From Pseudomonadales bacterium (lineage in GTDB: Bacteria > Pseudomonadota > Gammaproteobacteria > Pseudomonadales > JAHRWD01), in assembly GCA_016763075.1 (NCBI GenBank), contig JAESUM010000038.1:8571-72570 (forward strand): a stretch of 64,000 bases of DNA, given 5' to 3'. Numbering within the stretch: position 1 is the stretch's first letter; every line of letters begins with the position of its first letter. Of the stretch, positions 16,830 through 54,274 are shown piece by piece. Below the pieces are notes generated by a model. The model searched no databases. It saw only the letters and a program-made list of their open reading frames with translations, and had not been told where the DNA came from. The translations under genes and the position numbers were made by a program.

Positions 16830-16872
16830 TGTTGATAGGTTAGCAGTTGCGTAAAATATTATTTCTAATAAT

Positions 16873-17969: not shown

Positions 17970-18641
17970 GTGCGCACCGAAGAAGAAAAAATCGAGAAAC
18001 AGCGGGAATCATGGGATGCGCGACAGGGCGTCTACGGTAACAGTTTGAGATCGGTATTGTTCAAAAACTTGCCCTCCTCACTAAACAATCGCCTACACCA
18101 AAAACATGTCGATTTTGTATTAAAATCACTACCTGAATGCCAGGGAAGTTTGTTGGATGTTGGATGTGGGTACGGACGAATGTCGGCTGAGGTTCAGCGG
18201 CATAAGCCTTCAATGACTTTTGAAGGAGTTGAAATATGTGCGGAATTTGCAGACAAATTTAGACAAGATTTAGGTGATTGTTATCATGGGTCGGCTGTCA
18301 GTTACGTTCCATCGGCGCAGTTTGATGTGGTTCTTATGGTTACGATTCTGATGTATCAAACTCCGGAAACCTTTTCTGAATTTCTTCACAAATACTGGCA
18401 GTCTGTCAAAGTTGGTGGAGTTCTTATCTGCGTCGAGCCGTATAGAAATATGCTTGTTCGATATAGGCAATATAATGCCTCGGAACCTCAAACTGAACAC
18501 TACTTTGAGCGTAATCAGCTGAAGGTATTGCTGTCGGCCTTGCCAAACTCTAGTGTTACTTGTCATCAGCAATTTGGGCTGCTGCCTTTGGTTAATCAGC
18601 CAGTGCTTCACCACGGGATCACTGTGTATAAGGAAAGTTAG
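17970..18641 (+). CDS. Class I SAM-dependent methyltransferase
   Basis: Motif I LLDVGCGYGRMS and motif post-II LKVGGVLICVEP. GTG start. Confidence 0.7.
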   Translation: MRTEEEKIEKQRESWDARQGVYGNSLRSVLFKNLPSSLNNRLHQKHVDFVLKSLPECQGSLLDVGCGYGRMSAEVQRHKPSMTFEGVEICAEFADKFRQDLGDCYHGSAVSYVPSAQFDVVLMVTILMYQTPETFSEFLHKYWQSVKVGGVLICVEPYRNMLVRYRQYNASEPQTEHYFERNQLKVLLSALPNSSVTCHQQFGLLPLVNQPVLHHGITVYKES

Positions 18642-18771
18642 ACGGTACGTGACAACTAGGCAGGTAGCAGGGTGGCGTATCGCAGTGAGTTTAGAGTTTT
18701 GGTTCCGAGCCGTGACCGCGCGCAAGGCTGATTGTACTAAACTTTTGAAAGATATTGAGCTGTAGTATTTA

Positions 18772-19527
18772 TTGCTAGGAAAACTAATGAAGTCACAAAG
18801 ATTTTTAAAGTTCTATCAATCTGAATCTGAGAAATATCACGGATTGCGATACGGTGGACTGTATGGGAAGTTATTTAAGACGCTGCACCATGAGGCTCTA
18901 AGTGGTTTCTTGGTACAGGCGGATAACAGCGAACCAATTTTGGAAATAGCCTGTGGTACAGGTCATACGACGGGTTTGCTGGTAAAAGAAGGTTTTGATG
19001 TTATCGCCTGCGATTTAACTCCAGGCATGATGCAGCGCGTAAGTGAGCAAACTGGCGACCAACATGAAAAGGTCTCATTTGTTCGAATGGATGCTTTTAA
19101 ATTACCCTTCCCCGATGCCTGCGTGAGTACAGTGGTATCGACACGATTTTTACATCTTTTCCCAGCTGATGAACAGGAGCTGATTATAACGGAGATGTAC
19201 CGAGTGCTAAAACCGGGAGGTGTGGTTTTAGTCGATTTCGATAGTTGGGTTCATCGTTGGTGCTGGGCGTTACCTTTTGCACTATACAATCTTCTACGGT
19301 ACCAACGGCTAGCGCCATACAGTATATATAATCGTATTGGTCGAACAATCACTATGGCTTCTAGGGTAGGGTTTTCAGATATTAAAGTAGATGGCATAGG
19401 AGGAGCTCAACTATTGCTGCCCGCGTTGATATCTGGCTCGACGGCTTTAAAGGTTGGCCGTATGCACCGCCGTTCAGTGCTTCGTTTGATTGCTGATCAG
19501 TTTATGGTTTGCGGGAAAAAATATTGA
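18772..19527 (+). CDS. Class I SAM-dependent methyltransferase
   Basis: Motif I ILEIACGTGHTTGLL, then DLTPGM and LKPGGVVLVDF. The start may be the ATG at 18787. Confidence 0.75.
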   Translation: MLGKLMKSQRFLKFYQSESEKYHGLRYGGLYGKLFKTLHHEALSGFLVQADNSEPILEIACGTGHTTGLLVKEGFDVIACDLTPGMMQRVSEQTGDQHEKVSFVRMDAFKLPFPDACVSTVVSTRFLHLFPADEQELIITEMYRVLKPGGVVLVDFDSWVHRWCWALPFALYNLLRYQRLAPYSIYNRIGRTITMASRVGFSDIKVDGIGGAQLLLPALISGSTALKVGRMHRRSVLRLIADQFMVCGKKY

Positions 19528-20642
19528 AAGTATTGGTTGTCGCGCCAGGTATTTGTACACCGTATTCTGAAGGAAGGAAAAGATTTGTACTTGATCTAAT
19601 TCAAACTCTATCCGGTCAAAACGAAGTTCTGTTGCTTACAACAACAGTTAAAGGTGAATCAACAAAGCTCAAAACACGTTTTCATACACGTGTTTTGGGG
19701 CATGGTGTTTTTCATCTTTTGTATTTGATCATCCGGCTGCCTTTTACCATTAAGGAATTCAAACCTGACATTATTTGCGTGTTCCCTTACGGTACATTCC
19801 GAAATTTGTACGGTGTTGCATCTAAATTATTTATGCGATGTGTTGACAAAATCGCCTCGATATTTTCTGTATTTTGTTTGACAGTTGTTTATTCGCTGGA
19901 TGAATATGGCCGGCATCAACAGCTTAGAAAAATTGTGAGCAATTTGACGCTTAGCCAAAGACCAGACTGGGACGGGATGGTTGTCAATCTTGGCGTTAAT
20001 ACAGCGCATTGGCCAGAGAAGAAATCTAATATAGACGTAGATAGTTCTCATAAAACGCTGTTGTTTATGGCAGGTATGTGGGAGCAAACAACTGACCGAG
20101 TAGATCACGTAATTGCAGTTCGAGGGCTAGGTGTTCTATTGGAAGCAGGAGAATCTCTAAGTTCAGCCGGAATTCGGCTAATTGTCGCTGCACCGTTGTT
20201 TAGTAGTGAACTATGTAGAGAGTATGTACGTCAGCATGCAAAGAATACGTGGCCAGAATCGAATTTGGAGTTTCGTGAATTTGTATCTGTCCCAGAAATC
20301 TATTGGGACGCGGACCTATTTGTCTTCCCATACACTAAAGAGATAAACCATTTTGTACCTACATCAGTTGTAGAAGCCATGCTGGCGGGAGTTCCCGTAG
20401 CATTGAGCGATAAGTCGTTTTTAGATCCGTTAGCTGGTAATGAAGATCGGGTGGTTAGAATAAATGCATTCGATCATGAGTCGTTATCAAATGTATTAGT
20501 AGATACCCTAAATAACCCGGACTTATTAAGGAGGCTGTCAGGAAGTGCAGCGTGTTACGCTAGAGAGAGTTGGTCAATAGAGGCATCTGCTGAGCAAATT
20601 CAACAACTGTACGAGCGGAGAAACAACACCGTAAATAGATGA
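19509..20642 (+). CDS. GT4 (group 1) glycosyltransferase
   Basis: C-terminal region LFVFPYTKEINHFVPTSVVEAMLAGVPVALSD is typical of GT-B retaining enzymes. Overlaps the preceding methyltransferase by 19 nt. Confidence 0.65.
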   Translation: MREKILKVLVVAPGICTPYSEGRKRFVLDLIQTLSGQNEVLLLTTTVKGESTKLKTRFHTRVLGHGVFHLLYLIIRLPFTIKEFKPDIICVFPYGTFRNLYGVASKLFMRCVDKIASIFSVFCLTVVYSLDEYGRHQQLRKIVSNLTLSQRPDWDGMVVNLGVNTAHWPEKKSNIDVDSSHKTLLFMAGMWEQTTDRVDHVIAVRGLGVLLEAGESLSSAGIRLIVAAPLFSSELCREYVRQHAKNTWPESNLEFREFVSVPEIYWDADLFVFPYTKEINHFVPTSVVEAMLAGVPVALSDKSFLDPLAGNEDRVVRINAFDHESLSNVLVDTLNNPDLLRRLSGSAACYARESWSIEASAEQIQQLYERRNNTVNR

Positions 20643-20680
20643 GCTATGTTGTCGGTAGAGACTTCAGTATGGAGCTGAGT

Positions 20681-21880
20681 CTATCGAACGATTAGCTTCT
20701 TTACGGCACTAATTACGCGTTGGATATCTTCATTACTCATTTTAGGCGATAAAGGTAGGCTGATGGTGTTTTGACCGACTTCGGTAGCAATGGGGGTGTC
20801 TTCGGGTTTCCAACCAAAGGTTGATTGATAGTAAGGATGTTCCGGTATGCTTAAATAATGTACGCCGACACCTATTTTTTCGCTGGTCATGGCATCTAAA
20901 AATTGATCTCTCGAAATACTGCTTTCAGTGTTATCTAGCAGTATCGTATAAAGATGATAGGCGTGCCGGTCCCCAGGTGTTGGCTCGCTTGGACAAGTAA
21001 AAGGTAGGTCGTTAAACGCGCTCTGGTATTGCTGCCATATTTGTTCTCGCCGAGTCCAGTTTTCTTCAATGCTCTTAAGTTGGTGGATTCCTAAGGCGGC
21101 TTGAATATCCATCATGTTGTATTTGAACCCGCATTCAACGACTTGATAATGTTTGTAACCTTTGTCACCAAATCTGTGCCACGCATCTTTAGTCATTCCG
21201 TGTAATGCCAATCGTTTTACTCGAGCGATTTTGTCTTCATCGCGAGCAAGCACCATTCCGCCCTCTCCAGTGGCAAGGTTTTTCGTTACGTAAAAGCTGA
21301 AGCAACCGAAATCCCCAAATGTACCGGCTGGAACGCCTTGATATTTGGTTTCAATTGCATGGGCGCAGTCTTCTATAACTATGAGGTTATGTGTTTTTGC
21401 CAGCGCCATGATGGCAGTCATATTGCATGGGCGGCCGGCAAAATGTACGAGCAAAATAGCTCGGGTTTTTGGTGTGATTTTTTCGGAAATTTTATCCGGT
21501 GAAATATTGAGTGTATCGCGTTCTATATCGGCGAGTACTGGAGTTAACCCAGCGTGGATAATCGAACTGACGGTTGCGCAGAATGTCATAGCAGTAGTGA
21601 TGACTTCATCCCCCGGAGCCAATCCCGCAGCAACCATACTCACATGCAGAGCGGCAGTGCAGGAGTTTACCGCTGCGCTATGACTCGCTGAATAACCTTT
21701 ATATTCAGCGAATTCTTTTTCGAAGCGCGCCACCTTTGGTCCTGTACCAAGCCAGCCAGACCGGAGGGTAGCTTCGACTTCTTTGATTTCTTCCTCACCA
21801 ATTGATGGGGCACCGAATACAATAAATTCTTTTTCTGAGGACATTGCCGTCGCCTTATTTACAAGTAGCTGAGGATACAC
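20681..21880 (-). CDS. DegT/DnrJ/EryC1/StrS family PLP-dependent sugar aminotransferase
   Basis: Family-typical sequence including FSFYVTKNLATGEGG (PLP lysine region). The probable start is the ATG at 21844 (MSSEKEFIVFGAP). Confidence 0.85.
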   Translation of the reverse strand: MYPQLLVNKATAMSSEKEFIVFGAPSIGEEEIKEVEATLRSGWLGTGPKVARFEKEFAEYKGYSASHSAAVNSCTAALHVSMVAAGLAPGDEVITTAMTFCATVSSIIHAGLTPVLADIERDTLNISPDKISEKITPKTRAILLVHFAGRPCNMTAIMALAKTHNLIVIEDCAHAIETKYQGVPAGTFGDFGCFSFYVTKNLATGEGGMVLARDEDKIARVKRLALHGMTKDAWHRFGDKGYKHYQVVECGFKYNMMDIQAALGIHQLKSIEENWTRREQIWQQYQSAFNDLPFTCPSEPTPGDRHAYHLYTILLDNTESSISRDQFLDAMTSEKIGVGVHYLSIPEHPYYQSTFGWKPEDTPIATEVGQNTISLPLSPKMSNEDIQRVISAVKKLIVR

Positions 21881-21936
21881 GTATATTTTTTAACTGATAC
21901 AATCCGATATTTTTTGCACGCTAGGGATACTTTCGG

Positions 21937-27219: not shown

Positions 27220-27696
27220 TTACAGTGAATGCAATTGTTGGGCTGCTTCAAGTACTTGGCCGACGTGACCTTTTACACGGACCTTTAACCATTCTTTATG
27301 CAGCACACCTTGTTTATCTATTAAGTAGGTACTACGTACAATTCCTAGGTGTTCTTTGCCGTAGAGTTTTTTTAATTTGATGACATCAAACAACTTACAA
27401 AGAGATTCATCGGGGTCAGAGATTAACTCAAACGGAAATTCTTGCTTGGCCTTGAAGCGTTCATGAGATTTCATACTGTCTCTTGAAACCCCGAAAACAA
27501 CGGTGTTTGCAGCACTAAAGGCCGCCATGTTATCGCGGAAGTCCTGCCCTTGGGTGGTGCAACCGGGTGTACTGTCGCGTGGGTAAAAGTAAATCACCAC
27601 TTGCTGACCTTTAAGGTCTGAAAATTGAAGCTGATTTTCTCCGGTGGTTTGTGCGGTGAAGTCAGGGATGGGTTGTGCTTCGGTAACGGTATTAAT
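27220..27696 (-). CDS. bcp: Peroxiredoxin Bcp (thiol peroxidase); the N-terminus is only reachable from a non-canonical ATT start
   Basis: Active site YFYPRDSTPGCTTQ. The frame upstream of the GTG at 27600 encodes a Bcp-like N-terminus (NTVTEAQPIPDFTAQTTGENQLQFSDLKGQQ). It contains no ATG, GTG or TTG after the upstream in-frame TGA. An ATT at 27696 lies 6 nt after a GGAGG. Confidence 0.8.
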   Translation of the reverse strand: MNTVTEAQPIPDFTAQTTGENQLQFSDLKGQQVVIYFYPRDSTPGCTTQGQDFRDNMAAFSAANTVVFGVSRDSMKSHERFKAKQEFPFELISDPDESLCKLFDVIKLKKLYGKEHLGIVRSTYLIDKQGVLHKEWLKVRVKGHVGQVLEAAQQLHSL

Positions 27697-27850
27697 TGTT
27701 GGCCTCCAGTGGTCGGCGCGGGTCTCGTTGGTTCAATTATTCTGCTACTACTTTGGTTCTATTTGGGTTCAACAAAGCTATCAGAGTAAACTCTATCATA
27801 TTCAGTTGGCGGCGGGCTTTCGTCACCGGTTCATTTTACCTGAGGTTTAC

Positions 27851-29076: not shown

Positions 29077-31470
29077 TTAAGCAGCTTCCTTTGATTTATC
29101 TTTGATCAACCAATGGGCGAGAGAAGGAAGGATAAGTATTGCGCCCAGCATATTCAGTATGAACATGAAGGTTAGCAAGATTCCCATATCAGCCTGGAAT
29201 TTAAGATCCGAGAAAATCCAAGTAGCCACACCTACTGCAAGCGTTAAGCCGGTGAAGATGATCGGCTTTCCGGTTAGGCGAAGTGCTCGGTAGTAAGATT
29301 CTTGTAAGCTCATGCCCTGTGCAATGGATTCCTCCATTCGGCTATAGATGTAAATACCGTAATCAACACCGATACCCACACCCAGAGCAACGACTGGCAA
29401 GGTATTAACCTTAAGCCCGATCTCCAGAATGGTCATCAATGCGTAACAAAGTACTGACACCAGCGCCAATGGCAAGATGATACAAAGCGTGCCGCGTATC
29501 GAGCGGTAGGTGACAACGCAAAGCAAGAAAATAGCGATATACACATAGGCCATAATAGGCAGCTGCGCAGCGGCTACGGCCTGGTTGGTGGCAGCAATGA
29601 TGCCTACATTCGATGAAGCTAACTTAGGGTTGAATTTCTCGATGGGCAAACCAGAATCAAACTCGTTAATACCATCGATGATTACCTGAATGGTTTGTGC
29701 TTTATGGTCTGTGGTGTATACCAAAATTGGCATCGCAGTGCAGTCAGCATCCATCAGTCCGCCGCTAGTTTCCATATAGCGTAATGCGCCACTCATGTTG
29801 TACCGGTTCCGTAGCACCGCTTGCCATTTAGGCGAGCCTTCGTTGTTGCCCGATGTAATGAATTTCATCGCTTCAGATAACGAAGCTACAGATTGAACGC
29901 CTGGAAGGTTCTGAATATGCCAATGGAAGCGATCCATGGCATCCATAATTTCATAGTTAATGCAGGCGTCTTGTGGCGCAGCAACAATGACCGAAAGCAC
30001 ATCAACACCAATGGCAAACTTAGATGTGATCATTTTGCTGTCTAGGTTGTAGCGTGCATCTTCTCGTAGCTCAGGTACGCCAGATTGAAGGTCGCCAATC
30101 TGTAAATTATTACCTTTATACAAGCCCCATGCGCCGAGAACTACGGCAACCAGTAATACTGGGATTGCGCGCTCTCGAGTTGTAAGGGTAGATAAACTTC
30201 TCCAAATCCCATCGAGCTTAGCTTCACCTTTCTGGCGGTTTTCACGGTAAGCATCAAGGTTTTTGATTCTTACAAAGGAAAGAAGAATAGGCAGCAAGAT
30301 CAAGTTAGAGAAGATGATCAATGCAACACCCAGCGATGCAGTGATGGCCATTTCCTGAATGATCCCAATACCGATTAGCAGCACGGTTAAGAAACCAATG
30401 GTGTCGCTGACTAACGCTAAGCTGCCAGGAATGACCAAACGGCGGAATGTACGCCGTGCGGCCTCGTTGCCGCCAACTCCTTGGGTGTTGGCATCCACTG
30501 GCATGACCGGTTTATTCACGTCAGTTTCATCTGCGCCGTACAGGACTTCTCCCATCCAGCTGCTGATCATTTGAACACCGTGACTGACCCCGATGGCGAA
30601 GACCAGGAACGGAACCAAGATACTCATAGGGTCTATTCCAAAGCCCAGCAGGCTGAGCGAGCCAAGCTGCCATATCACCGCAACAATGCTACAAATAAGC
30701 GGCAGTATCGTTAGCTTGATGGAACCAGAATATAGCCAGAGCATAACTGCAGTAATCAACAGCGCTATGCCAAAGAAGGCAATAACGCTTCGTGCGCCTT
30801 CAGCGATATCGCCGATAGATTTTGCAAAACCTAGGATATGAACCGTGATATTGTCTGTTTCAAAGCGATCTCGTAAATTAATCTCAAGATCTCTGGATAT
30901 ACGCTGATAGTCGAGGGGTTTTCCCGTTCGCGGATCAAAATCGATTAATTCAGCACGAATCAGCGCCCCCGTGAAATCGTAACTAACCAACCGCCCAAGC
31001 TGTCCTGACTTTACGATGTTTTGTTTTACAATTTCGAGCCATTCGGGTGTGGGTTGAAACTCAGCGGGAATAACATTGCCTCCGGCAAAGCCATCTTCAA
31101 CGAACTCAGTAAAACGCACGTTAGGGGTGAAAATTGAGGTGACACTAGATTTAGCCACGCCATTGAGGAAGAAAACCTCATCGGTAGCTTCCCTTAAAGC
31201 GATAAAAAACTCTGGGTTGAATATGGTTCCGTCTTTCTGAACCAAAGAAACGATAATTTGGTTACCACTACCAAAATCTTCTTGGTATTCCAACAGGGTT
31301 TTCATGTAGGGGTGTTCTAGTGGTAATTGCTTGGCAAACCCTGCCTCCATTTTTAAGGAGGTAGCGTTGTATCCCATGAATGCGGTGATCAGAGCAAAAA
31401 GAGTGATGAGCAGTACGCGGTTGGAAAAAATCAACCGCTCGAATGCACTGATGAAACGGTTTGTTTTCAT
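29077..31470 (-). CDS. RND superfamily transporter (MMPL/HAE3-like exporter)
   Basis: 797 aa with two repeats, each a large periplasmic loop plus a TM bundle. Last gene of the DUF1302 operon. Confidence 0.8.
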   Translation of the reverse strand: MKTNRFISAFERLIFSNRVLLITLFALITAFMGYNATSLKMEAGFAKQLPLEHPYMKTLLEYQEDFGSGNQIIVSLVQKDGTIFNPEFFIALREATDEVFFLNGVAKSSVTSIFTPNVRFTEFVEDGFAGGNVIPAEFQPTPEWLEIVKQNIVKSGQLGRLVSYDFTGALIRAELIDFDPRTGKPLDYQRISRDLEINLRDRFETDNITVHILGFAKSIGDIAEGARSVIAFFGIALLITAVMLWLYSGSIKLTILPLICSIVAVIWQLGSLSLLGFGIDPMSILVPFLVFAIGVSHGVQMISSWMGEVLYGADETDVNKPVMPVDANTQGVGGNEAARRTFRRLVIPGSLALVSDTIGFLTVLLIGIGIIQEMAITASLGVALIIFSNLILLPILLSFVRIKNLDAYRENRQKGEAKLDGIWRSLSTLTTRERAIPVLLVAVVLGAWGLYKGNNLQIGDLQSGVPELREDARYNLDSKMITSKFAIGVDVLSVIVAAPQDACINYEIMDAMDRFHWHIQNLPGVQSVASLSEAMKFITSGNNEGSPKWQAVLRNRYNMSGALRYMETSGGLMDADCTAMPILVYTTDHKAQTIQVIIDGINEFDSGLPIEKFNPKLASSNVGIIAATNQAVAAAQLPIMAYVYIAIFLLCVVTYRSIRGTLCIILPLALVSVLCYALMTILEIGLKVNTLPVVALGVGIGVDYGIYIYSRMEESIAQGMSLQESYYRALRLTGKPIIFTGLTLAVGVATWIFSDLKFQADMGILLTFMFILNMLGAILILPSLAHWLIKDKSKEAA

Positions 31471-31530
31471 TGGGCAGTCCTTATAATTATTTTTATATGA
31501 TCAAGTATTGTTGTTCAACGGGGCGTTGTC

Positions 31531-32496
31531 TTACTGGGTTTTCAGTTTCGAAGCGCCACGAACGCCGAATACAACAAAATCGGAATCGTTTATAGCGATG
31601 ACGGATGTAAGGTTTTCAAAGCCTCTGTAGGGTATTTTTTCAAAGTTTGTATCACCCTTGCTGCGACGTATGATGGTTCCGCCAGCGCCCAGAAAAACCG
31701 TGTCGCCAGATGCAGTGAAGACACCGTCTAAAATATTGGTGGTAACGCCGGTGTCAAGTTCAGTCCAGCTGTTGCCAAGATCGTCAGAAGCGAAGGCGTG
31801 CCCACGAAGCCCGTAGACGATAATTTGATCACCATCGTCGGTGGTCGTGGTAAGTGCCCCGAAAAAAGACCCAACGTAAGGGGATTCAAGCTGTGTCCAG
31901 GTAGCTCCTTGATCTGATGAGCGAACCAATGTACCGGCTTCACCGGCGATAAATAAATGAGTGCCAACCTGAATGATTGAGTTGAGGTGCCAATCAAGCT
32001 CCCCAATCATGAAGTTCTGCCAGGTTTTCCCACCATCGTTTGTGCGCATGATTAACCCGTATGCGCCAGTTACCAAGCCGTTGTTAGCATCTAGAAAAAC
32101 TACATCAAGTAGTGGTTTTTCTAAGTCTGGAGCTTCAAACAAGATATTCCAGTTTTCGCCGCTATCTGTAGTACGCAAAATGATACTGTCATGGCCCACA
32201 GCCCAGCCGTTTTTCTCATCAATAAAATAAAGAGAGGTCAGTAGCATTTGGGTTGGCGAATTAGCCTGTACCCAAGATTCACCTTGGTTGTCGCTATAAA
32301 GAATATGTCCGCGGCCACCGACAGCGAAAATGCGCTCTCCAGTAGTAAACGAGTTGACCAGTAGGGATTTATGAGCCTTGGCGGCGATGGTGGAAGGTAC
32401 TTGAATTGAATCTGCGTGACTTAATGTCGCATTCAGCGCAATAATTAGCGTTGAGTATTTCGCTAGGCAACGAAATGATTTTCCGAGACTGTTCAT
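31531..32496 (-). CDS. Secreted Asp-box (BNR) beta-propeller protein, Ycf48-like
   Basis: Signal peptide. Five SxDxGxTW-type Asp boxes: SDNQGESW, TDSGENW, TNDGGKTW, SSDQGATW, SDDLGNSW. Confidence 0.75.
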   Translation of the reverse strand: MNSLGKSFRCLAKYSTLIIALNATLSHADSIQVPSTIAAKAHKSLLVNSFTTGERIFAVGGRGHILYSDNQGESWVQANSPTQMLLTSLYFIDEKNGWAVGHDSIILRTTDSGENWNILFEAPDLEKPLLDVVFLDANNGLVTGAYGLIMRTNDGGKTWQNFMIGELDWHLNSIIQVGTHLFIAGEAGTLVRSSDQGATWTQLESPYVGSFFGALTTTTDDGDQIIVYGLRGHAFASDDLGNSWTELDTGVTTNILDGVFTASGDTVFLGAGGTIIRRSKGDTNFEKIPYRGFENLTSVIAINDSDFVVFGVRGASKLKTQ

Positions 32497-32609
32497 CTAA
32501 ACGGTCCTTAAAAATGGATCTTATATTAGGAAGATTCTGGACATAAAAACGGTACAGAATCAAAGGGAACCTGGAGTCAGGCAATAGCCTGGCTCCAGGG
32601 TGCACAATG

Positions 32610-33983
32610 TTACCGGATACCAGATGCGCGAAGGGCGGCTGGTGTGTAGTTAGAAGGAGAAGATCTAAACGAATGATCGTCAGGAGTGTCTTCGTTATCG
32701 AGCCCTACTACCAGGTAACGACCAGATTGAAGGTCATTGTGGACTTCAGCAGTGTTGATACCAACAAGAATATCCTGGCTGTTGTACAGGTGAGCTTCAG
32801 ACATTCTCCAAAGTTGATCACGTTTGTCGTAATGATCCATTACAGCAATTTGCCAGCTATCTTCATCCATGAAGTAAACGCGTTTTTTGTAGATATGGCT
32901 TGTACCGGCTCTCAAAACACCTTCAACATGCCAAACACGGTGTAGCTCATAGCGAGCGTAGTCTTGGTTGATATGTCCTTTTTGGATGATTTGATCGATT
33001 TTAAGGTCGCCATCATGTAATCCATAAGAGTTGTACGGAATATACATTTCTTGTTTGCCTACCAGGTTCCAAGAATAACGATCGATATTGCCGTTGAACA
33101 TGCCTAACTGGTCACTTGTTGCAAGGCCATCACCGCCTGTCTTAGGATTATCATATTGAACCTGTGGTGCACGACGAACACGACGTTGACCGGGGTTATA
33201 AGCCCAAATTTTACGCTTGCCGGTATCGTTGTGCATCACACCCAAAATCAGGATTACCGCACCGGCTTTTTTAGCCGGGGCTTTAATGGTTTGACGGAAG
33301 TAAAATACATCGCCTTTTCCATCAAAGCTGGAGGCAGTATTGCCTTCTTTAGACCAGTTGGATAACAGTTCCTCTATGATTTTAGAAGTTTGGTGTTTTC
33401 CACTGCTTGTTACAACCGTGGTGTTAGACCAACGCTGCACACCGGCCCGAGCGATCTTAGTCGCATTGTTTAGGACCGCTTCAGCACCATTATTAGGGAT
33501 GGGGAAAGCCCAAGCAATTTTGGCACCGCGGAAATCATTTCCGCTTTCAGTTAGCTCTGCCGTTGAGGCGTTGCCAATCGCTGCCTGGTACACGTACGGA
33601 TGGTTGGATGCACTACGCCGTGTTGGATAAATTTCCATTTTGTAGTCTGCGTACAGTGCAAACATCTCTTGTTGGCCGGGGCTCAGTTTGTCGGCGTACT
33701 GTTTATAGTTTGCCGGAGTAATCGTGAACAACGGTTTATCATCTGGGAATGGGTTGGCTGGCCACTGACCTTTGGTTTGGTCTTTTTGCGGAAGTCCACC
33801 AGTCCAAGCTGGAATGGTTCCTTCTGCGTTACCGGCGCGAACAGCCCCGACGGGAGTAAGTTCAGTATCAGTAATGCCAAGCTTTGCAGCCTCTTCAGAA
33901 GAGACCTTAGCTTGCACACCGTATGATGATAGCGCTGCTACAAGTGCAGTTGAGACAGCTAATATTTTTGTTTTATTTTTCAT
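32610..33983 (-). CDS. DUF1329 family periplasmic / outer-membrane-associated protein
   Basis: Signal peptide, then AAKLGITDTELTPVGAVRAGNAEGTIPAWTGGL, the N-terminal signature I recall for DUF1329. Paired with DUF1302. Confidence 0.7.
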   Translation of the reverse strand: MKNKTKILAVSTALVAALSSYGVQAKVSSEEAAKLGITDTELTPVGAVRAGNAEGTIPAWTGGLPQKDQTKGQWPANPFPDDKPLFTITPANYKQYADKLSPGQQEMFALYADYKMEIYPTRRSASNHPYVYQAAIGNASTAELTESGNDFRGAKIAWAFPIPNNGAEAVLNNATKIARAGVQRWSNTTVVTSSGKHQTSKIIEELLSNWSKEGNTASSFDGKGDVFYFRQTIKAPAKKAGAVILILGVMHNDTGKRKIWAYNPGQRRVRRAPQVQYDNPKTGGDGLATSDQLGMFNGNIDRYSWNLVGKQEMYIPYNSYGLHDGDLKIDQIIQKGHINQDYARYELHRVWHVEGVLRAGTSHIYKKRVYFMDEDSWQIAVMDHYDKRDQLWRMSEAHLYNSQDILVGINTAEVHNDLQSGRYLVVGLDNEDTPDDHSFRSSPSNYTPAALRASGIR

Positions 33984-33998
33984 TATTATTACCCCTAT

Positions 33999-35591
33999 TT
34001 ATAAGCTGTGTTTAAAAGTAAGCGCGAAGAAATCTTTGTCGTGGCTGGTATTGTTGGACAGGTTCCCCCAATTTCGTGTGTACCCAATATCAATCGTAGA
34101 GCTAGTCAAGTAGGTAGCTGTTACGGCCACCGTTAGACTTTTACGACCTTCTAGGAAAGTGCCGCTTGGCGAGCCAGGCGATGTGCCAGAGACGTCATGC
34201 TTCAGTGTTGCGGAGGGCTCGAGGTTCATATCAAAGAACACATTCGAGTATTGAAGTTTGATTAACGCGACATAACCCCATGAAAAATCGTCATATTTTG
34301 CGAAAGCAGCAGTGTCCAGCGGGCCTCCGGAAGGCATATTCGCCATAACAAGTCCGGGCTCAACTAAGATAGTCATTTTTTCAGACGCAAACCAATTATT
34401 AGAACCACCTTGGTAAGTAATGCTGGTTTGTATTTGCGTTAGGTCACCAAGACTAAAGCCGTCATGAGTGATTATCGTTGGCGGTGTTCCTGCTCCAGCA
34501 TTTATAAGCCCGAATATAGTTGACCCTAAGCTCATGGGAACATCTGGTCGGTGCGAAATTTCGGCGCCGAGTGAGAGCCCTAGTTCGCCAGGAAGGTCTA
34601 CGTTAAAGCTTGCGCCAAACAGATCGATATCTTCAGGATATTGGGTTTGGTATGTGTGCGCACCTGCTGATATTGGTGATGTTATAGATAAAAAAGGCGA
34701 ATGACTATGGTAGCGCATATAGTATGCGGCAACTTCCATGTATGCCCAGTTTTCTATTAACGTTCTGAAAGCAAAACCATATTCGCCGCCGTCATCAGGT
34801 TCAATGCTGGCCCCTCTGGGAATGGGTGCGGGTAATGCTGGGTTGTTGATTACTGTACCGCCCTCGGTAATTGGATCAGTGCTAGATGTAGCAAAAAAGG
34901 TACCGACGGGGTCGATTATCGTTTCCTGCCATTTCGCAACGTAATAAGCATCGATGGAGAAATTCCCGCCAAAATCAAGCGATGCCCAAACCATAGGTAG
35001 TGGTAAAAGGATTTCCTTAACTTCAACCGCAGCGCCACGCGCTTTTGTTGCATCGATCGGGTTTATGCTATTAAGGCTATTCCCAATAAAAGTGCTTTCG
35101 CCCCAGCTGAGTACTTGATTACCAACCCGTACCGATAGCATGTTTTCGTCAAAAGCGAAATTCCCATATACGAATGCGTCAAGTAGCTGGAATTTGTTAC
35201 CTATTTCATCTTGTCCGGCAGAAGTGATGTTAAAGACATTGGTGTCTAAGCCCATGATTTTAGCGTCGTAAATATAGCTGCCACGTACGAAAATTCCTTT
35301 GGAATTTTTGCTGTATCCCGCTTCAACAGTAACTTTTAAGGGTGTAGATACAAGCTCCCCGCTCTCTTCGAAATTGGTATTTCCTGAATTGGATAGAACT
35401 GGATCTTCTGTCCGCCAGATACCGCCGAGGGACACCGTGGTGTCTAGAAAACCTGAGGCGCTAGAGTCGTCAAATTTAAGCTGAAAAGCTTGGGAGCTTA
35501 GAGGGAGCGTAAGAAGAGCCCCTGCCCCAATTATCTTTGCTAGGGTGTTTGTACTTCCCCCAAGCGTGCGTGTTTTTGTGGGTTTAGTCAC
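33999..35591 (-). CDS. DUF1302 family putative outer-membrane beta-barrel protein
   Basis: Signal peptide, alternating beta-strand-like sequence and a C-terminal aromatic-rich end (FALTFKHSL). Lies 15 nt upstream of DUF1329. Confidence 0.7.
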   Translation of the reverse strand: MTKPTKTRTLGGSTNTLAKIIGAGALLTLPLSSQAFQLKFDDSSASGFLDTTVSLGGIWRTEDPVLSNSGNTNFEESGELVSTPLKVTVEAGYSKNSKGIFVRGSYIYDAKIMGLDTNVFNITSAGQDEIGNKFQLLDAFVYGNFAFDENMLSVRVGNQVLSWGESTFIGNSLNSINPIDATKARGAAVEVKEILLPLPMVWASLDFGGNFSIDAYYVAKWQETIIDPVGTFFATSSTDPITEGGTVINNPALPAPIPRGASIEPDDGGEYGFAFRTLIENWAYMEVAAYYMRYHSHSPFLSITSPISAGAHTYQTQYPEDIDLFGASFNVDLPGELGLSLGAEISHRPDVPMSLGSTIFGLINAGAGTPPTIITHDGFSLGDLTQIQTSITYQGGSNNWFASEKMTILVEPGLVMANMPSGGPLDTAAFAKYDDFSWGYVALIKLQYSNVFFDMNLEPSATLKHDVSGTSPGSPSGTFLEGRKSLTVAVTATYLTSSTIDIGYTRNWGNLSNNTSHDKDFFALTFKHSL

Positions 35592-35802
35592 AGGTACTCT
35601 CCTATATATTTATATTTATTATTGCATCTACCCTATAACGCCTTTCGGGTATAAGCAACCGTTTCTTCGTGCTCCATAAAGGTGTAATTAAGTCTTGAAA
35701 TATTGTTGGTTTTAAGCGCGATTTTTATGTTAACTCAGATATTTTATTGGGTATTGCGCACAGGCAATTTTTTTGTACTAACCTGAATATATCCATTAAT
35801 TT

Positions 35803-36474
35803 TTGAGTATTGGTACTGTGGTTGCATCGGTTGCTGAATCATTGGAGTTTAACGTTTTCTCATCACGCTTCGAGGTTGGTAATTGTTGCCAATCGACTAT
35901 AACCAGTGCGTCAATTTCGGCCGAGCTTGACAAGGCCTGCGGTAAAGCAAAAAAGCTTTCATTGGCCGCAAAAAATGCTAGGGCAATGGTGCTTCGTGTG
36001 GGTGACAGGGCTATGGGTTTAAAAGTAGTCACAGACTACTTTTCTGAACTGGCCGATAACACCATTTCTTTGGCTAATAATATCAATTTGGTTGCAAATA
36101 ATATTTCTGGAGTAACGGTGGCCCGTTGGCGTACCGAGACTCTTATATTGCAATTGAAAAAAGCCAGAAAGTTGGATGTTAAAGGAACTGCTTTCGAGTC
36201 ATTAGTGCTTCGCCAAATAAGCGAAAAAATTGCTAGAGATCTTCATGAAAAAGAAGAGTTGTCTGAGAAGCTAATTCGACACTTGGAGATTGAGCTTGAA
36301 GAAATACAACGTCAAATGAGAGCTGCGGATGTGGTTTGTGTGACGTTCTTATTAGAAGCAACCAAGACCGGCGAATTTCAGGAAATACTTAAATCTATGG
36401 CGAATAATATCAAGCAACTTTCTGATGATATTAAGGCGCATGTTAATCGATCTCAGTCATTGTTGGAGATGTAG
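35803..36474 (+). CDS. Small cytoplasmic coiled-coil protein with a degenerate MCP signalling-hairpin-like segment
   Basis: KKLSLAAKNARAMVLRVGDRAMGLKVVTDYFSELADNT aligns loosely with the MCP core [33 protein letters not shown]. There are no TM or sensor domains. The exact start is uncertain (TTG 35803 or GTG 35818). Confidence 0.5.
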   Translation: MSIGTVVASVAESLEFNVFSSRFEVGNCCQSTITSASISAELDKACGKAKKLSLAAKNARAMVLRVGDRAMGLKVVTDYFSELADNTISLANNINLVANNISGVTVARWRTETLILQLKKARKLDVKGTAFESLVLRQISEKIARDLHEKEELSEKLIRHLEIELEEIQRQMRAADVVCVTFLLEATKTGEFQEILKSMANNIKQLSDDIKAHVNRSQSLLEM

Positions 36475-36475
36475 T

Positions 36476-37204
36476 TTGCAAACTCATAGCGTATATAAAG
36501 GCCGGCATCAGTGGGTCGTTTTTGGCAGAGATGAAGGTAAGCCTGACGGTATTATTGATACCAATCAATGTATGGTTGTTAATGGAAGCCGTGCTCTTAT
36601 TATTGATCCGGGCGGCACAGAGCTTTTTGCTCCAATGCTTTCTGCAGTGCTTCAATATGCTGATATAGAGGAAATTACGGATCTTTTTGCATCTCATCAA
36701 GATCCGGATATAATTTCTTCACTAGGTCTTTGGGATCAGGTTTTACCCCACGCCACCCTTCATGCTTCGTGGTTATGGGAGGGCTTTATTCGGCATTTTG
36801 GAATGGAGAATATCCCCTACCAAGCGATACCTGATTCTGGTGGTAATTTGAATCTTGGTGATTTAGGTCTACAGCTTATCCCTGCGCACTATTTACATTC
36901 TTCTGGTAATTTCCATATTTATGACCCTGTTGCAAAAATACTATTTTCTGGTGATGTTGGTGCATCAATAGAGCCTCCAGGTATGCCAATTTATGTTGAA
37001 GACTTTGAAGATCAAATTCAATATATGGTTTCTTTTCATCAGCGCTGGATGCCATCGAATCAAGCGAAATTAGATTGGATTAATAGAATTAGAAAGCTGG
37101 ATATTGAGTTTATGATTCCTCAACATGGAAGAATTTTTAGAAGAGAAGATGTCCCATTATTTTTAGACTGGTTTGAAGAGCTTGAAGTGGGGATTACGGG
37201 GTAG
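36476..37204 (+). CDS. MBL-fold metalloprotein, flavodiiron / ODP-like
   Basis: TTG start 1 nt after the upstream stop, preceded by GGAG. MBL motif series SHQDPD, PAHYLHSSG, FSGDVG, IPQHG. Confidence 0.7.
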   Translation: MQTHSVYKGRHQWVVFGRDEGKPDGIIDTNQCMVVNGSRALIIDPGGTELFAPMLSAVLQYADIEEITDLFASHQDPDIISSLGLWDQVLPHATLHASWLWEGFIRHFGMENIPYQAIPDSGGNLNLGDLGLQLIPAHYLHSSGNFHIYDPVAKILFSGDVGASIEPPGMPIYVEDFEDQIQYMVSFHQRWMPSNQAKLDWINRIRKLDIEFMIPQHGRIFRREDVPLFLDWFEELEVGITG

Positions 37205-37316
37205 AGTACGTAAGTACTATATTTATCAAACACTCGTTTTTATGAGCCTGGTTGAAGTGTAATTAAAACCGGTTTTGTATTGGTTATGAAAATCTAAATG
37301 AAGAGAATTATGAAAT

Positions 37317-37345
37317 AAAAAAGGCTCCAATTTGGAGCCTTTTTT
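37317..37345. terminator. Bidirectional rho-independent terminator
   Basis: AAAAAAGGCTCCA-ATT-TGGAGCCTTTTTT, with an A-run and a T-run flanking a GC-rich stem. It sits between the convergent MBL-fold gene and ggt. Confidence 0.75.
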
Positions 37346-37353
37346 ATTTGCGT

Positions 37354-39123
37354 TTATGAGCCTTTTGAAAAGCCTTCTCTTCGAGGGTCTGCGCCACCTT
37401 TTAGGAGGCCCTTTGAATCAATGGTTATTCCATGCAGGCCGCTGTTCAAATCCCGAATATTTACTATATGACCCATGGCTTCAAGCTGCTCTTTCATGCC
37501 CTCTAATATCGAGTTTTGTTCGAGGTCTGTAGCGCCGTTTCTGTTACCGAAATGTGGTAAATTAATTGCATGTTGAATAGATAGCTTCCAATCTAATAGT
37601 GCTACAAGCGTTTCAATCACATAATTAATGATTCTGCTTCCGCCGGGTGAGCCGATGAGCATAATTAGTTGGTCATTTTTATCGAAAACCATGGTCGGCG
37701 CCATCGAGCTTCTTGGTCGTTTTCCTGCCTGAACAGAGTTAGCGATTTGCGATCCGTTGGCTTCAGATGCGAATGAAAAATCGGTGAGTTGGTTGTTTAA
37801 CAAAAACCCGTCAACCATCAACGATGAACCGAAGGCCATTTCGATACTTGTGGTAACAGATACGCCATTTCCCTGTTGGTCGATAATTGAGTAATGGCTG
37901 GTTGATGGTAGTTCAGGTGATGTTGAAGTGGTCCATACCGTTGCACCTTTTATGTTGCCTGCCTGGGCTTTTCCCATATCTTGGTTGGGGTTGATCAGCT
38001 TTGCGCGGGATAGTGCATATGCTGGGTCTAACAGCGCGGCTGTGGGCACGGCTACAAAGTCGTTGTCGGCAATATAAAGGTTGCGGTCGGCAAATGCTAA
38101 GCGCTGCGCCTGAGTAATGAGGTGTATTGATTCGATCGATAAAGGCTTCATTGCCGGTAAATCAAAATGACTGAGAATTTGCATGGTTTGGATCACCGTT
38201 AAACCACCGGAGCTTGGTGGCGCCATGCCGCAAATGCGGTAGCTGCGGTATGCGGCGCAAACCGGCGGCCGAATTTTAGCCTGATAAGCGCCAAGGTCTG
38301 CCATGCTAAGCGTACCTGGATTACCCGCGTGGCCGTTTACGGCTTCAATAATATGCTTGGCTATGTCGCCTCGGTAAAAGGCTTTGGTGCCTTCTTTGGC
38401 GATCTTATGCAGTGCCTTAGCAAGTTTTGGGTTGGTGAGCTTGTCACCGGCCACGATGGCCTTTTGGTTTGGAAAGAAGTAGTCATTCGCTGCACCGGCA
38501 CGCTTCAAACCAGGGTTTATATCTGCCTTAACTAATTTTTCTAATCGTGGCGATACACTAAAACCTTGCTCGGAGAGTGTAATGGCGTCTTCAAATAATG
38601 ATTCCCAAGGTAGCGAGCCATAAGCTTGGTGATCTTGCTCAAACATTTTTAATACGCCGGGCACGCCGACTGATTTTCCGCCCACTACGGCTTCGATCCA
38701 TTTCATGGGTTTACCATCAGGGTGACGAAACAGATTGGGCTGCACATCACTTGGTGCGGTTTCGCGGCCATCAAAGGTTACTAGCTCTTTTTTGGCTTGA
38801 TCCCAATAGAGCAAAAATGCGCCACCGCCAATGCCCGAGGACTGCGGTTCAACCAAATTCAATACCATTTGAACGGCAATTGCGGCATCAATGGCGTTGC
38901 CGCCTTTGGCCAGAATCTTGGCGCCGGCATCGGTTGCGTAGCGGTTTGCAGCACTCACCATAAAGCGCTGGCTGCTAGCCTCGGTTTGTGTGGTCATGCC
39001 GGTAGCGGCTTCAGGGTCGCGGTCTTCTCGCTCTGGTGCGGGTTTAGAGCATGCAGACAACAACGTAAAACAGATAATCCCTGCGGTTAGCAGTCGTGCT
39101 GTATTGGTGGCTTGGCTAGGCAT
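37354..39123 (-). CDS. ggt: Gamma-glutamyltransferase
   Basis: Lipoprotein-like signal (LLSAC), autoprocessing and catalytic Thr region PSTSHYSIID, and GSPGGSRI near the C-terminus. Confidence 0.9.
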   Translation of the reverse strand: MPSQATNTARLLTAGIICFTLLSACSKPAPEREDRDPEAATGMTTQTEASSQRFMVSAANRYATDAGAKILAKGGNAIDAAIAVQMVLNLVEPQSSGIGGGAFLLYWDQAKKELVTFDGRETAPSDVQPNLFRHPDGKPMKWIEAVVGGKSVGVPGVLKMFEQDHQAYGSLPWESLFEDAITLSEQGFSVSPRLEKLVKADINPGLKRAGAANDYFFPNQKAIVAGDKLTNPKLAKALHKIAKEGTKAFYRGDIAKHIIEAVNGHAGNPGTLSMADLGAYQAKIRPPVCAAYRSYRICGMAPPSSGGLTVIQTMQILSHFDLPAMKPLSIESIHLITQAQRLAFADRNLYIADNDFVAVPTAALLDPAYALSRAKLINPNQDMGKAQAGNIKGATVWTTSTSPELPSTSHYSIIDQQGNGVSVTTSIEMAFGSSLMVDGFLLNNQLTDFSFASEANGSQIANSVQAGKRPRSSMAPTMVFDKNDQLIMLIGSPGGSRIINYVIETLVALLDWKLSIQHAINLPHFGNRNGATDLEQNSILEGMKEQLEAMGHIVNIRDLNSGLHGITIDSKGLLKGGADPRREGFSKGS

Positions 39124-52136: not shown

Positions 52137-53354
52137 CTAGTTGCTGCTTGTGCTAAGGATCTCTACTGAAAAAAGCTGCACGTGTTTAGAGCTCATGAGC
52201 AGCTGCCCGGTTTGTGCCGGCTGCTCAATGCTCTGGTCGTCAAAAGAGATCGCGAGCTTACGTTTTTCGTGATACAAGCCAGGGGTGGTGATGATCTGCC
52301 AAGACTCATTTTTGCCAGATATCGCCTGCAGCAGCAGACCGTACCGCGGGTAACTATCTACCGTTACGTTATCCTTAGCATTGACCGCCATGGGGTATAT
52401 TTGCCCCGGAATGTATTTAAGCCCTAGGTGTATTTCGTGCCCCGATGGGTCATTCGTATTCCAGCGCACAGTAGCCAGTTTTGGTGCCGTAATCGCGCCA
52501 TCTTTGTTTTCGTATAGTAAGACTATTTGCCCAGGCTCTAAGCTATGTTTAGGCATTTTTTTGAGCAAAATACAGGCACCGCTGGTGCTTTCATCGGTAA
52601 TAACGCCTTCAATTTGGTCATTTAATTGTCGGCGCACTTCATCAATAACCTCCGTGGCGTGGCTGGCCACATAATGGATATCGCGCACGCTGTACGTGCA
52701 ATCAACTTCTTTTTTGGTTTCGACGCGCTCTTCAGTGCGCTCGCTGGTTTGTAACCAAGTTTTGGCAAGCTGAGTCAGTAGTGGCTGTTTGGAGTTGCGG
52801 AGGGTGTTTTCGAGCCCGGCTATGTGGGCTTCGGGCCGTGCTTCGAGTTGCTTTACGTGGCTTTTTAACAAGGTTGTGAGTGGTTCTAAATCTAGCGCCA
52901 GTAGCTCAATGGCTTGGTCAAACCAGCGATAACTTTGTGGCTTTTTATCAGAGGTTAGATTGATAACAAATCCAGAATCTGGCGCAAAATGGGACTCTAA
53001 TTCCAACACAGTAGCTAGGTTGCTGTGTTGCGCAAGATAGCACCAAATGTTCATTACCTGTTCAGGCAGCATTTGATAGGGGTCAGATATCGCAAGAACC
53101 GACACCTGCAAATACAGAGCTTCTATATCGCTGGCAATTGCACCGAAAGCGCTGAATTCAACCACGTGTTCGAGCAATTTATTGGCCCGCGCATAGGCGT
53201 ACAGTTGGTGAAGGTCACGCCAATGATGTTCGTTCTTTTTACGGTGTTTTTGAAACTCCAGAAGCTGCTCAAGTGATATGAGCGCCATGGTGAAATAAAC
53301 ACGCTCGGCTAGTTTCTTGGTTTTGAAAGGGTTGTTTTCAGGGAAGGCCAGCAA
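52137..53354 (-). CDS. Hypothetical protein with a C-terminal PilZ-like domain (larger part of a possibly split gene)
   Basis: DxSxxG-like motif (ITDESTSGACIL). An RxxxR (RTEER) lies ~43 aa upstream, farther than canonical. TTG start in the track, but the frame stays open upstream to 53459. Confidence 0.55.
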   Translation of the reverse strand: MLAFPENNPFKTKKLAERVYFTMALISLEQLLEFQKHRKKNEHHWRDLHQLYAYARANKLLEHVVEFSAFGAIASDIEALYLQVSVLAISDPYQMLPEQVMNIWCYLAQHSNLATVLELESHFAPDSGFVINLTSDKKPQSYRWFDQAIELLALDLEPLTTLLKSHVKQLEARPEAHIAGLENTLRNSKQPLLTQLAKTWLQTSERTEERVETKKEVDCTYSVRDIHYVASHATEVIDEVRRQLNDQIEGVITDESTSGACILLKKMPKHSLEPGQIVLLYENKDGAITAPKLATVRWNTNDPSGHEIHLGLKYIPGQIYPMAVNAKDNVTVDSYPRYGLLLQAISGKNESWQIITTPGLYHEKRKLAISFDDQSIEQPAQTGQLLMSSKHVQLFSVEILSTSSN

Positions 53355-53374
53355 CGACAGCTTAAAACCAAAGC

Positions 53375-53710
53375 TCAGTTCATGGGTAAAGCCAGAAAGT
53401 TTGTCACTGGCTTTTTCAGCGGCTTCAGAATATTTTCGGTTTTCATGGCTGTTACGTGTTCAAAAAACATCTGAAACGGCTGCAGAAAACACTCGAGAAT
53501 TTCGAACCGAGAATTGGGCCCCATCTGGGTTCGGTTCAGCAATGCTAGCTTACTGGTGACCTGATCGAGGGCTTCAGGCATGTTACCATAGGGTAGCTGC
53601 TCCAGCTCCTGCGTCAGTTTAGTAATACTCGTAGAGACCAAGCTTTCTTTGATGGTTTGCTTGTCGGGAAGAGATAATTCTAAGTCTGTTAAATTCATAG
53701 GAGTTGTCAA
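53375..53710 (-). CDS. Hypothetical 111-aa ORF, possibly the N-terminal fragment of the downstream PilZ-like gene
   Basis: Its 3' end overlaps the upstream open extension of the 52137-53354 frame by ~85 nt in a different frame. Confidence 0.4.
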   Translation of the reverse strand: MTTPMNLTDLELSLPDKQTIKESLVSTSITKLTQELEQLPYGNMPEALDQVTSKLALLNRTQMGPNSRFEILECFLQPFQMFFEHVTAMKTENILKPLKKPVTNFLALPMN

Positions 53711-53764
53711 TTTGATCAGGAGCTGTCAATTAAATCAGGAGCTGTAAAGCTAAGGTGATTTCGT

Positions 53765-54274
53765 TTGATGAATGTTTTTAATAAGGCTCCCGTCTACAAG
53801 GGTAATGCTCCTCATCGTATTTCACCCATTATAGCCGGAGCGCTACTTTTGTGCGTGCTTCTACTGCTATCAAGTTGTACTAAACCAGATTTTACCGATA
53901 CCGCCGGACAAACCGGCCGTTTCCAAGATTTCCAAGGTAAATGGCTGGTGATTAATTATTGGGCAGAGTGGTGCGAGCCATGCCGAGAAGAGATCCCGGA
54001 GTTCAATCTGTTTGCTAAGCAGCACGCTGATACCACTGAAGTATTTGCAATATCCTACGATTCTTTGTCCGCACAAGAGCTGGCAGAACAAGCCAACAGA
54101 ATGGGCATTGAATTTCGGGTGTTAACGCAAGACCCATCCGTTTTTTTGGGCTTTAAGAAGCCGCAGGTATTACCCGCAACCTACATCTTTAAACCCGACG
54201 GTTCCTTTTACAAAGAACTATTAGGCCCGCAAACGCAAGAATCCCTCGAAAACCTATTGTTCGGTTCTAAATAA
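53765..54274 (+). CDS. TlpA/ResA-like thioredoxin-fold lipoprotein
   Basis: Lipobox LLSSC and the CxxC active site WAEWCEPCREEIPE. Confidence 0.75.
   Translation: MMNVFNKAPVYKGNAPHRISPIIAGALLLCVLLLLSSCTKPDFTDTAGQTGRFQDFQGKWLVINYWAEWCEPCREEIPEFNLFAKQHADTTEVFAISYDSLSAQELAEQANRMGIEFRVLTQDPSVFLGFKKPQVLPATYIFKPDGSFYKELLGPQTQESLENLLFGSK

Follow-up and report, generated by a model that had tools for sequence, protein, structure and literature searches.

We analysed a stretch of 64,000 nucleotides (hereafter the window) from a contig of a Pseudomonadales bacterium (GenBank assembly GCA_016763075.1, contig JAESUM010000038.1), in which an earlier note, made from the letters alone, had proposed that a sensor-less relative of the methyl-accepting chemotaxis proteins (MCPs) is coupled to a di-iron protein that binds oxygen (ODP). 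The list of open reading frames (ORFs) confirms two ORFs on the forward strand, which together form a two-gene sensing cassette. ORF1 (35818..36474) begins with a GTG, the start chosen by the gene callers, and encodes 218 aa according to the ORF list and its homologues; an alternative TTG at 35803 would extend it to 223 aa. ORF2 runs on the same strand from a TTG at 36476 to 37204 and encodes 242 aa, as judged from the ORF list, Pfam and PDB matches. A single base separates the TAG stop of ORF1 (36472-36474) from this TTG, and the sequence GGAG, a ribosome-binding site for ORF2 (36465..36468, forward strand), lies within the end of ORF1, 7 nt before the start. The positions of the two ORFs, the 1-nt spacing, the TTG start and the GGAG were all found as the earlier note had described them. 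Some assemblies use for ORF2 an in-frame ATG at 36425, which would give 259 aa; the evidence favours the TTG at 36476, because the homologues are 242-246 aa long and the alignment with the ODPs of the PDB starts at residue 8. The two genes are probably co-transcribed, given their 1-nt spacing.

The second gene of the cassette has clear homologues of known structure. ORF2 matches the Pfam model of the ODP family (PF19583) over its whole length (model positions 1-194 of 194) with an E-value of 1.2e-71 and 241 bits (cut-off 27.2), and over residues 8-240 it matches the crystallised ODPs 6qrq (E 1.4e-59) and 6qnm (E 6.8e-50). Matches to flavodiiron proteins reach only about 1e-3 (1vme and 4dik; NCBIfam PRK11921, 1.4e-3). 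The first metal motif, SHQDPD (H74-Q-D76-P-D78; 36695..36709, forward strand), is identical in both crystallised ODPs. The ODP alignment places the other ligand codons, on the same strand, at 36887-36889 (H138), 36896-36898 (H141), 36953-36955 (D160) and 37121-37126 (Q216-H217), and the motifs around them (PAH138YLH141S, SGD160 and PQ216H217G) are those of 6qrq and 6qnm. All the ODP ligand residues are invariant among 20 ODP homologues. The earlier note's statement that H, D and H ligands follow SHQDPD, and its suggestion that the protein is of the ODP type, are borne out: H, D and a QH pair come after the motif, and the set is the same as in the crystallised ODPs. In the ODP of Thermotoga maritima, the Gln of motif 5 substitutes for the third His of motif 2 (PMC7785958). 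The only Pfam domains of ORF2 are ODP and Lactamase_B, without a flavodoxin or rubredoxin module. By every feature that can be checked in a sequence, ORF2 is a member of the ODP family. Characterised relatives bind Fe(II) together with O2, in the form of a peroxo-diferric species, and ORF2 is by homology a putative di-iron sensor of O2/Fe(II).

The relationships of ORF1 are more distant. It gave no match to the MCP signalling domain (MCPsignal, PF00015; gathering score 34.6 bits) even at an E-value of 1. It has 14 close homologues (218 aa), and a profile of close relatives, searched against 1.84 billion representatives, retrieved 271 clusters (at 50% identity), nearly all of them 196-225 aa long. 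When a profile of 138 members was compared with the PDB, the top of the list consisted of chemoreceptors alone: TM14 (E 8.8e-10), then 3ur1 and 4jpb, fragments of the TM14 tip crystallised with CheA (P4-P5) and CheW (E about 5e-8), TM1143 (2.4e-6), PcaY (3.4e-6) and Tsr (2e-4). These alignments centre on the U-turn of the receptor hairpin. Taken singly, 91 of the 138 members match MCPsignal at E <= 0.1 (the best at 2.3e-8), and several match NCBIfam models of MCPs. The profile-level likeness to the MCP signalling hairpin that the earlier note had suspected is therefore present (E 9e-10 to 2e-4), and it supports a derivation of the ORF1 family from the hairpin tip of MCPs. ORF1 itself is without sensor, membrane and methylation regions. 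It had been called degenerate: it is divergent, but it is an ordinary member of a conserved family that has invariant residues of its own.

Public annotation captures this family unevenly. It has no dedicated Pfam or NCBIfam model, and the precomputed MCPsignal annotation in related loci reads '-' or 'faint'. NCBI labels the family members of Bermanella and Litoribrevibacter 'hypothetical', and UniRef and the record of one metagenome-assembled genome (MAG) use 'chemotaxis protein'. The subclade to which ORF1 belongs (P0001-P0009) conserves a Cys-Cys pair at residues 24-25 (35887-35892), just before the first helix, together with C41 and C174. These cysteines, which remote members of the family do not have, might form a redox or metal site.

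The family carries two receptor tips in one chain. The tip motif of hairpin 1 spans residues 47-82 (LSLAAKNARAMVLRVGDRAMGLKVVTDYFSELADNT; 35956..36063, forward strand) in hidden Markov model (HMM) alignments with 2ch7, 3g6b and 3ur1 and in the residue comparison given below. It corresponds to the single MCP-hairpin segment that the earlier note had recognised; a second tip motif, that of hairpin 2, had been overlooked. This one spans residues 163-205 (IQRQMRAADVVCVTFLLEATKTGEFQEILKSMANNIKQLSDDI; 36304..36432, forward strand) and is recovered by a profile of the C-terminal half, by hhalign and by the residue comparison. The profile of close relatives aligns two regions to MCP tips, residues 30-162 with 2ch7 and residues 147-201 with 3ur1. 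A profile made from the C-terminal half only matches the TM14 tips (E 8.6e-6 and 1.2e-5), PcaY (8e-4) and TM1143 (1e-3), and its alignment to the TM14 tip is in register (rvEAsqaGe against tiEAARAGE). When the N-terminal and C-terminal halves were aligned with each other by hhalign, the match had a probability of 81% and an E-value of 1.2e-5, with the turns superposed. At the level of sequence profiles, the family is thus shown to consist of two MCP-tip hairpins in tandem, the result of an internal duplication.

Structure prediction gives a consistent picture of how the two hairpins may be arranged. From 13 sequences, AlphaFold2 models helices at residues 22-61, 63-119, 129-181 and 185-217 with a predicted local distance difference test score (pLDDT) of 82; with 138 sequences, the pLDDT rises to 91.6 and the predicted template modelling score (pTM) is 0.82. 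The models place turns at G62 and at 182-184, and a loop at 120-124. Insertions, deletions and frequent prolines concentrate in the connector at 120-131, in keeping with a loop. A Foldseek search of both models against the PDB returned nothing significant (best E 3e-3) and, as is usual with helical bundles, is informative on overall shape only. At low root-mean-square deviation, the best matches (5vju, 6z0c and 9fed) are four-helix bundles formed by one chain of about 196 aa, aligned over some 195 columns at 6-7 Å. A straight helix of 100 residues is incompatible with these four-helix-bundle alignments, which is why we read a turn at G62. In the AlphaFold2 models the helices are 33-57 residues long, with two hairpins per chain, and space for an adaptation region is absent. 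ORF1 lacks the long antiparallel hairpin, with its methylation helices, through which MCPs dimerise to form a four-helix bundle; its own predicted bundle is intramolecular. We infer that ORF1 would fold as an up-down-up-down single-chain bundle that has its two tips at the same end and mimics the tip of a receptor dimer.

To see which parts of the tip were retained, we compared both hairpins residue by residue with Tsr, whose numbering is used here, in a gap-free alignment anchored by hand, with family counts out of 138. The Tsr and TM reference strings were taken in part from the HMM alignments. Hairpin 1 was aligned to Tsr 375-410 and hairpin 2 to Tsr 368-410. Hairpin 1 keeps A372 (129/138), N381 (137), R388 (129), A389, G390 (136), G395 (124) and F396 (107; the equivalent in ORF1 is L68). 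It is changed at L380 (to K), E385 (to I, L, V or M), E402 (to F or Y) and R404 (to D or E, with S in the window). Retained in hairpin 2 are E385 (137/138), A386 (123), G390 (74), a Leu at 396 (119) and A400 (114), and this hairpin is hydrophobic at 377, 380 and 384 (V172, V175 and L179 in the window). There, N381 is replaced by T, N or S across the family, and R388 is an Arg in only 41 of the 138 members (K183 in the window).

These positions can be set beside the contacts described for Tsr in a 2026 review (PMC13098124), where I377, L380, N381, V384, R388 and R404 contact CheW, and Q374, I377, L380, N381, V384 and R388 contact CheA-P5. At Tsr I377, L380, N381, V384 and R388, the window protein has L, K, N, A and R in its first hairpin and V, V, T, L and K in its second. 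About half of the CheW and CheA-P5 contact residues are thus identical or conservative in one or other hairpin. The earlier note had held that most contact residues are changed, which is true in part only. The full tip motif is in neither hairpin and is divided between the two. An interdimer salt bridge joins E385 to R388 in Tsr trimers (PMC6681711); R388 is retained in hairpin 1 and E385 in hairpin 2. Such complementary retention would fit sub-functionalisation of the two halves after duplication.

The association of the two genes is strict in the loci that we sampled. We collected 80 metagenomic loci with an ODP 61-68% identical to ORF2, of which 73 have at least 650 nt of sequence upstream of the ODP gene. 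A member of the ORF1 family lies upstream on the same strand in all 73, and ends no more than 80 nt before the ODP start in 68 of them. The converse also holds: in seven of seven loci found through the partner (L001, L002 from a Myxococcales MAG, L003, L004, Bermanella marisrubri, Litoribrevibacter albus and L013), the ODP gene follows directly downstream, after a gap of 3-25 nt or with a 4-nt overlap. Two loci found through the ODP, those of Alkalimarinus sediminis and Thiohalobacter sp., have a gene of 200-205 aa upstream in which MCPsignal is annotated as absent or 'faint'. With these, the pairing holds in 9/9 further related loci inspected. The gene-neighbourhood check that the earlier note had called for therefore finds the two genes co-localised in every related locus examined (73/73 and 9/9). 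The genes around the pair vary between loci. Across the metagenomic loci, the partner has a median identity of about 30% to ORF1, compared with 61-68% for the ODP, and therefore evolves far faster. A scan of the representative genomes of GTDB, for which we used the close subfamily because the 138-member alignment was too diverse as a seed, returned only three loci, in two Pseudomonadales MAGs and one Myxococcales MAG.

Some of these loci have additional features. Two of them carry a gene for a canonical MCP of 396 aa with the full tip motif and an MCPsignal score of 105 bits (L046 758-1945 and L066 786-1985), on the strand of the mini-receptor/ODP pair and about 400 nt upstream of it. In three others, 330-460 nt are inserted between the partner and the ODP gene (L042 820-1280, L063 2095-2531 and L069 569-903); these gaps hold no conserved ORF and may represent a small mobile or repeat element. 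In the Myxococcales locus, an ORF of 209 aa that lies upstream of the pair turned out to be unrelated.

An ODP paired with a sensor-less MCP is a known kind of system. The original study (Muok et al. 2019, PNAS) is cited here as related in later papers (PMC7666581, PMC7319448, PMC6978683 and PMC7785958). As these papers have it, the ODP of Treponema denticola (TDE2498) is an oxygen sensor for chemotaxis, and genetic coupling links it to TDE2496, an MCP homologue in which membrane and sensor modules are absent; TDE2496 forms a 52-kDa dimer and a 156-kDa hexamer and deactivates CheA (PMC7666581, PMC7319448). ODPs are described as falling into groups that share operons with MCP genes, in either of two gene orders, that share them with other signalling genes, or that occur as fusions. 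The precedent named in the earlier note, an ODP with a sensor-less receptor, is found in the literature in the coupling of ODP and TDE2496, at least as relayed there. Because a dimer of 52 kDa implies chains of about 26 kDa, we infer that TDE2496 is a conventional single-hairpin receptor.

The Treponema and Thermotoga ODPs (TDE2498; PDB 6qrq and 6qnm) belong to the same Pfam family as ORF2 and have the same metal motifs, and the T. denticola system shares with ours the coupling to an MCP homologue without transmembrane and sensing modules. The partners differ: ORF1 is a protein of about 24 kDa that has two short tip hairpins per chain, lies below the MCPsignal threshold and splits the tip residues between its halves. 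The hosts differ as well, being anaerobic spirochaetes and Thermotogae in the known systems and marine Gammaproteobacteria for the pair described here. TM14 of T. maritima (TM0014; 3g67 and 3g6b) is soluble, sensor-less and of similar size (213 aa), and for each half it is the closest relative of known structure (E 8.8e-10 and 8.6e-6). However, it is not collinear with ORF1: TM14 matches only from residue 83 on (profile positions 22-141 align with TM14 83-204) and a second tip motif then follows, so that the single tip of TM14 is near mid-chain whereas those of ORF1, a chain of 218 residues, are at 62 and about 183. The flavodiiron proteins (FprA and flavorubredoxin) share the di-iron domain of the metallo-beta-lactamase (MBL) fold and give the weak matches mentioned above, but they differ from ORF2, which has no flavodoxin domain, carries HxDxD rather than HxExDH and has the motif-5 Gln ligand.

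The architecture of ORF1 has an engineered parallel. Fused dyads of 71-residue tip regions from Tm14 or Tar modulate the kinase and bind both CheA and CheW (Greenswag et al. 2015; bioRxiv 10.1101/2020.03.27.011866). In these single-chain 'dimers' and foldons, as in ORF1, two tip hairpins in one chain mimic the tip of a dimer; but the engineered proteins have identical halves and a trimerisation motif, whereas the ORF1 family is natural, its halves are asymmetric and have diverged together, and its partner is an ODP. What appears to be new is thus the architecture of the partner and its family, tied to one large ODP clade, mainly of marine Gammaproteobacteria. We found no description of the duplicated tip architecture in the literature checked; Muok et al. 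2019 may count such genes as 'MCP'.

These observations can be assembled into a model in which the mini-receptor reads the state of the ODP and its likeliest output is the chemotaxis kinase, reached through CheW, through CheA-P5 or by insertion among receptor tips. We give this reading a probability of roughly 0.6. ORF2 would bind Fe(II)/O2 as a di-iron sensor, as its homology suggests, and its metal or oxygen state would alter its contact with ORF1. The mini-receptor would then dock on CheW or CheA-P5, or enter receptor arrays, and bias CheA. The outcome would be aerotaxis or iron taxis without methylation adaptation, of which the partner alone would be incapable, since it lacks the methylation helices.

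Several results weigh against this model. The MCP homology of ORF1 is visible at the level of the family profile only: ORF1 alone has no Pfam or NCBIfam match, and single-sequence searches of Pfam, NCBIfam and the PDB returned noise. With hairpin 1 changed at 380, 385, 402 and 404, it is uncertain whether the family has a canonical interface for CheW or for trimers. The secondary structure assigned by DSSP to the second AlphaFold2 model is an unbroken helix at G62, and the template modelling scores of the Foldseek matches are just 0.4-0.55. The single-chain bundle comes from AlphaFold2 monomer models, and the protein may instead be a domain-swapped dimer. Finally, none of the related loci has a che gene within 6-10 kb of the pair, and an enrichment of canonical MCP genes near it was considered and rejected, as they occur in the flanks of 4/95 loci.

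Part of this evidence would suit a double-hairpin protein that has been freed from CheA and CheW. The state of the ODP would then be relayed elsewhere, to targets such as cyclic di-GMP enzymes, a transcription factor or the Chp system of type IV pili, or ORF1 would merely regulate or stabilise the ODP. The pair is always found by itself, and the neighbourhoods in which it lies vary and lack che genes; the partner changes far more quickly than the ODP and has no methylation region; and the family conserves surface residues of its own (K at 380, a hydrophobic residue at 385, F/Y at 402 and D/E at 404). ODPs have also been described in operons with other signal-transduction genes. On the other hand, what was retained of the receptor is precisely the tip, the part to which CheW, CheA and other receptors bind, and among proteins of known structure TM14, the tips of which were crystallised with CheA and CheW, is closest to both halves. 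In addition, we take Bermanella, Litoribrevibacter and Alkalimarinus to be motile marine bacteria. The results speak neither for nor against the earlier note's suggestion of signalling through something other than CheA/CheW; on balance we regard an output away from the chemotaxis kinase as the main rival, less likely than the model but with more in its favour than the explanations that follow.

It is improbable that ORF2 is an O2- or NO-scavenging or hydrolytic enzyme with ORF1 as its structural coiled-coil accessory. The ODP family does belong to the MBL/flavodiiron superfamily, and the Joint Genome Institute often names the homologues 'flavorubredoxin', but the cassette has neither a flavodoxin or rubredoxin domain nor an adjacent reductase, its ligands agree with those of the sensor ODPs and not with the flavodiiron HxExDH, and the partner derives from a signalling domain. 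That ORF1 is an unrelated helical protein whose likeness to MCPs is an artefact of coiled-coil composition is scarcely credible: the window protein alone has no significant match and designed coiled coils are also among the profile matches, but the top matches are all MCPs, in register at the U-turn, with N381, R388, G390, G395 and F396 near-invariant, two-thirds of the members match MCPsignal singly or NCBIfam models of MCPs, and the second half matches MCP tips independently.

A fuller version of the model, which we put forward tentatively, describes the family as a natural, single-chain, pseudo-dimeric tip, present in marine Gammaproteobacteria and certain other bacteria. It would have arisen from a TM14-like receptor that was truncated and duplicated and whose halves were sub-functionalised, with the ODP as obligate partner, and would act either as a plug-in to receptor arrays or through a coupling that does not involve CheA.

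The pair is also set apart within its own genomic region. Neither the Pfam survey of the window, which covered essentially all ORFs of at least 150 aa, nor a search for the canonical tip motif turned up a che gene, a fla gene or a canonical MCP gene within the 64 kb. The operon is divergent from a DUF1302/DUF1329 envelope cluster, the nearest gene of which encodes a DUF1302 protein (33999-35591, reverse strand). The AT-rich intergenic region between this gene and ORF1 (35592..35817) is the presumed site of the operon promoter; a promoter scan of this region found nothing above chance. On the other side, a bidirectional intrinsic terminator (37311..37349) is common to the pair and to a convergent gamma-glutamyltranspeptidase gene (37354-39123, reverse strand). 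It consists of a stem-loop (GGCUCCA-AUU-UGGAGCC) between A- and U-runs. A simple terminator scan overlooked the hairpin, and RNA folding recovered it, with a free energy of -22.9 kcal/mol and a z-score of -6.1; none of 200 shuffled sequences was equally stable. The isolation of the pair, its divergence from an envelope operon and the reality of its bidirectional terminator, all proposed in the earlier note, are thereby confirmed.

The envelope cluster is part of a block that is conserved elsewhere. In the window it comprises genes for an MMPL/RND transporter, a BNR/YCF48-like protein, DUF1329 and DUF1302 (29080-35591), and the same block occurs in L003 (1274-7774), at the equal position and in divergent orientation beside a pair whose partner is 72% identical to ORF1. 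Further away, the window encodes a type IV pilus gene set (4562-10214). On the reverse strand lie the genes for CoaE (4562-5194), a prepilin peptidase (5203-6237), a PilC-like T2SSF protein (6197-7444) and a PilB-like ATPase (7420-9168), and on the forward strand that for a divergent pilin with an N-methylation motif (9753-10214), all identified in the Pfam survey. Directly after the pilin gene, the cluster at 10243-21889 begins with an ORF of 668 aa without Pfam match, followed by genes for GT2, MBOAT and two GT1 proteins, an LPG_synthase_TM protein, two methyltransferases and a DegT aminotransferase; this may be an island for glycosylation of the pilin or the surface. Three sizeable ORFs, at 14551-15636 (forward strand, 362 aa), 52140-53459 (reverse strand, 440 aa) and 58111-58680 (reverse strand, 190 aa), gave no match to Pfam at E 1e-6. 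Two genes for AhpC/TSA-type peroxiredoxins (27223-27732, reverse strand, and 53759-54271, forward strand) are also present, neither of them adjoining the ODP pair.

ODP is among the few known non-haem sensors of O2 or iron for chemotaxis, and it has been studied in two anaerobes only. The loci described here show a large ODP clade of aerobic marine bacteria locked to a different and much smaller partner, of about 200 residues. Since Pfam and NCBIfam annotation misses the ORF1 family, the sensory repertoires of marine bacteria are under-counted. The cultured carriers Bermanella marisrubri, Litoribrevibacter albus and Alkalimarinus sediminis make the model testable. If it is true, the partner would be the smallest natural unit that presents a receptor tip, and the pair a minimal system for the control of CheA by such tips. 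If, more specifically, the version in which it joins receptor arrays is true, the mini-receptor would be a 'monomer that counts as a dimer', an O2- or iron-gated plug-in that works without adaptation.

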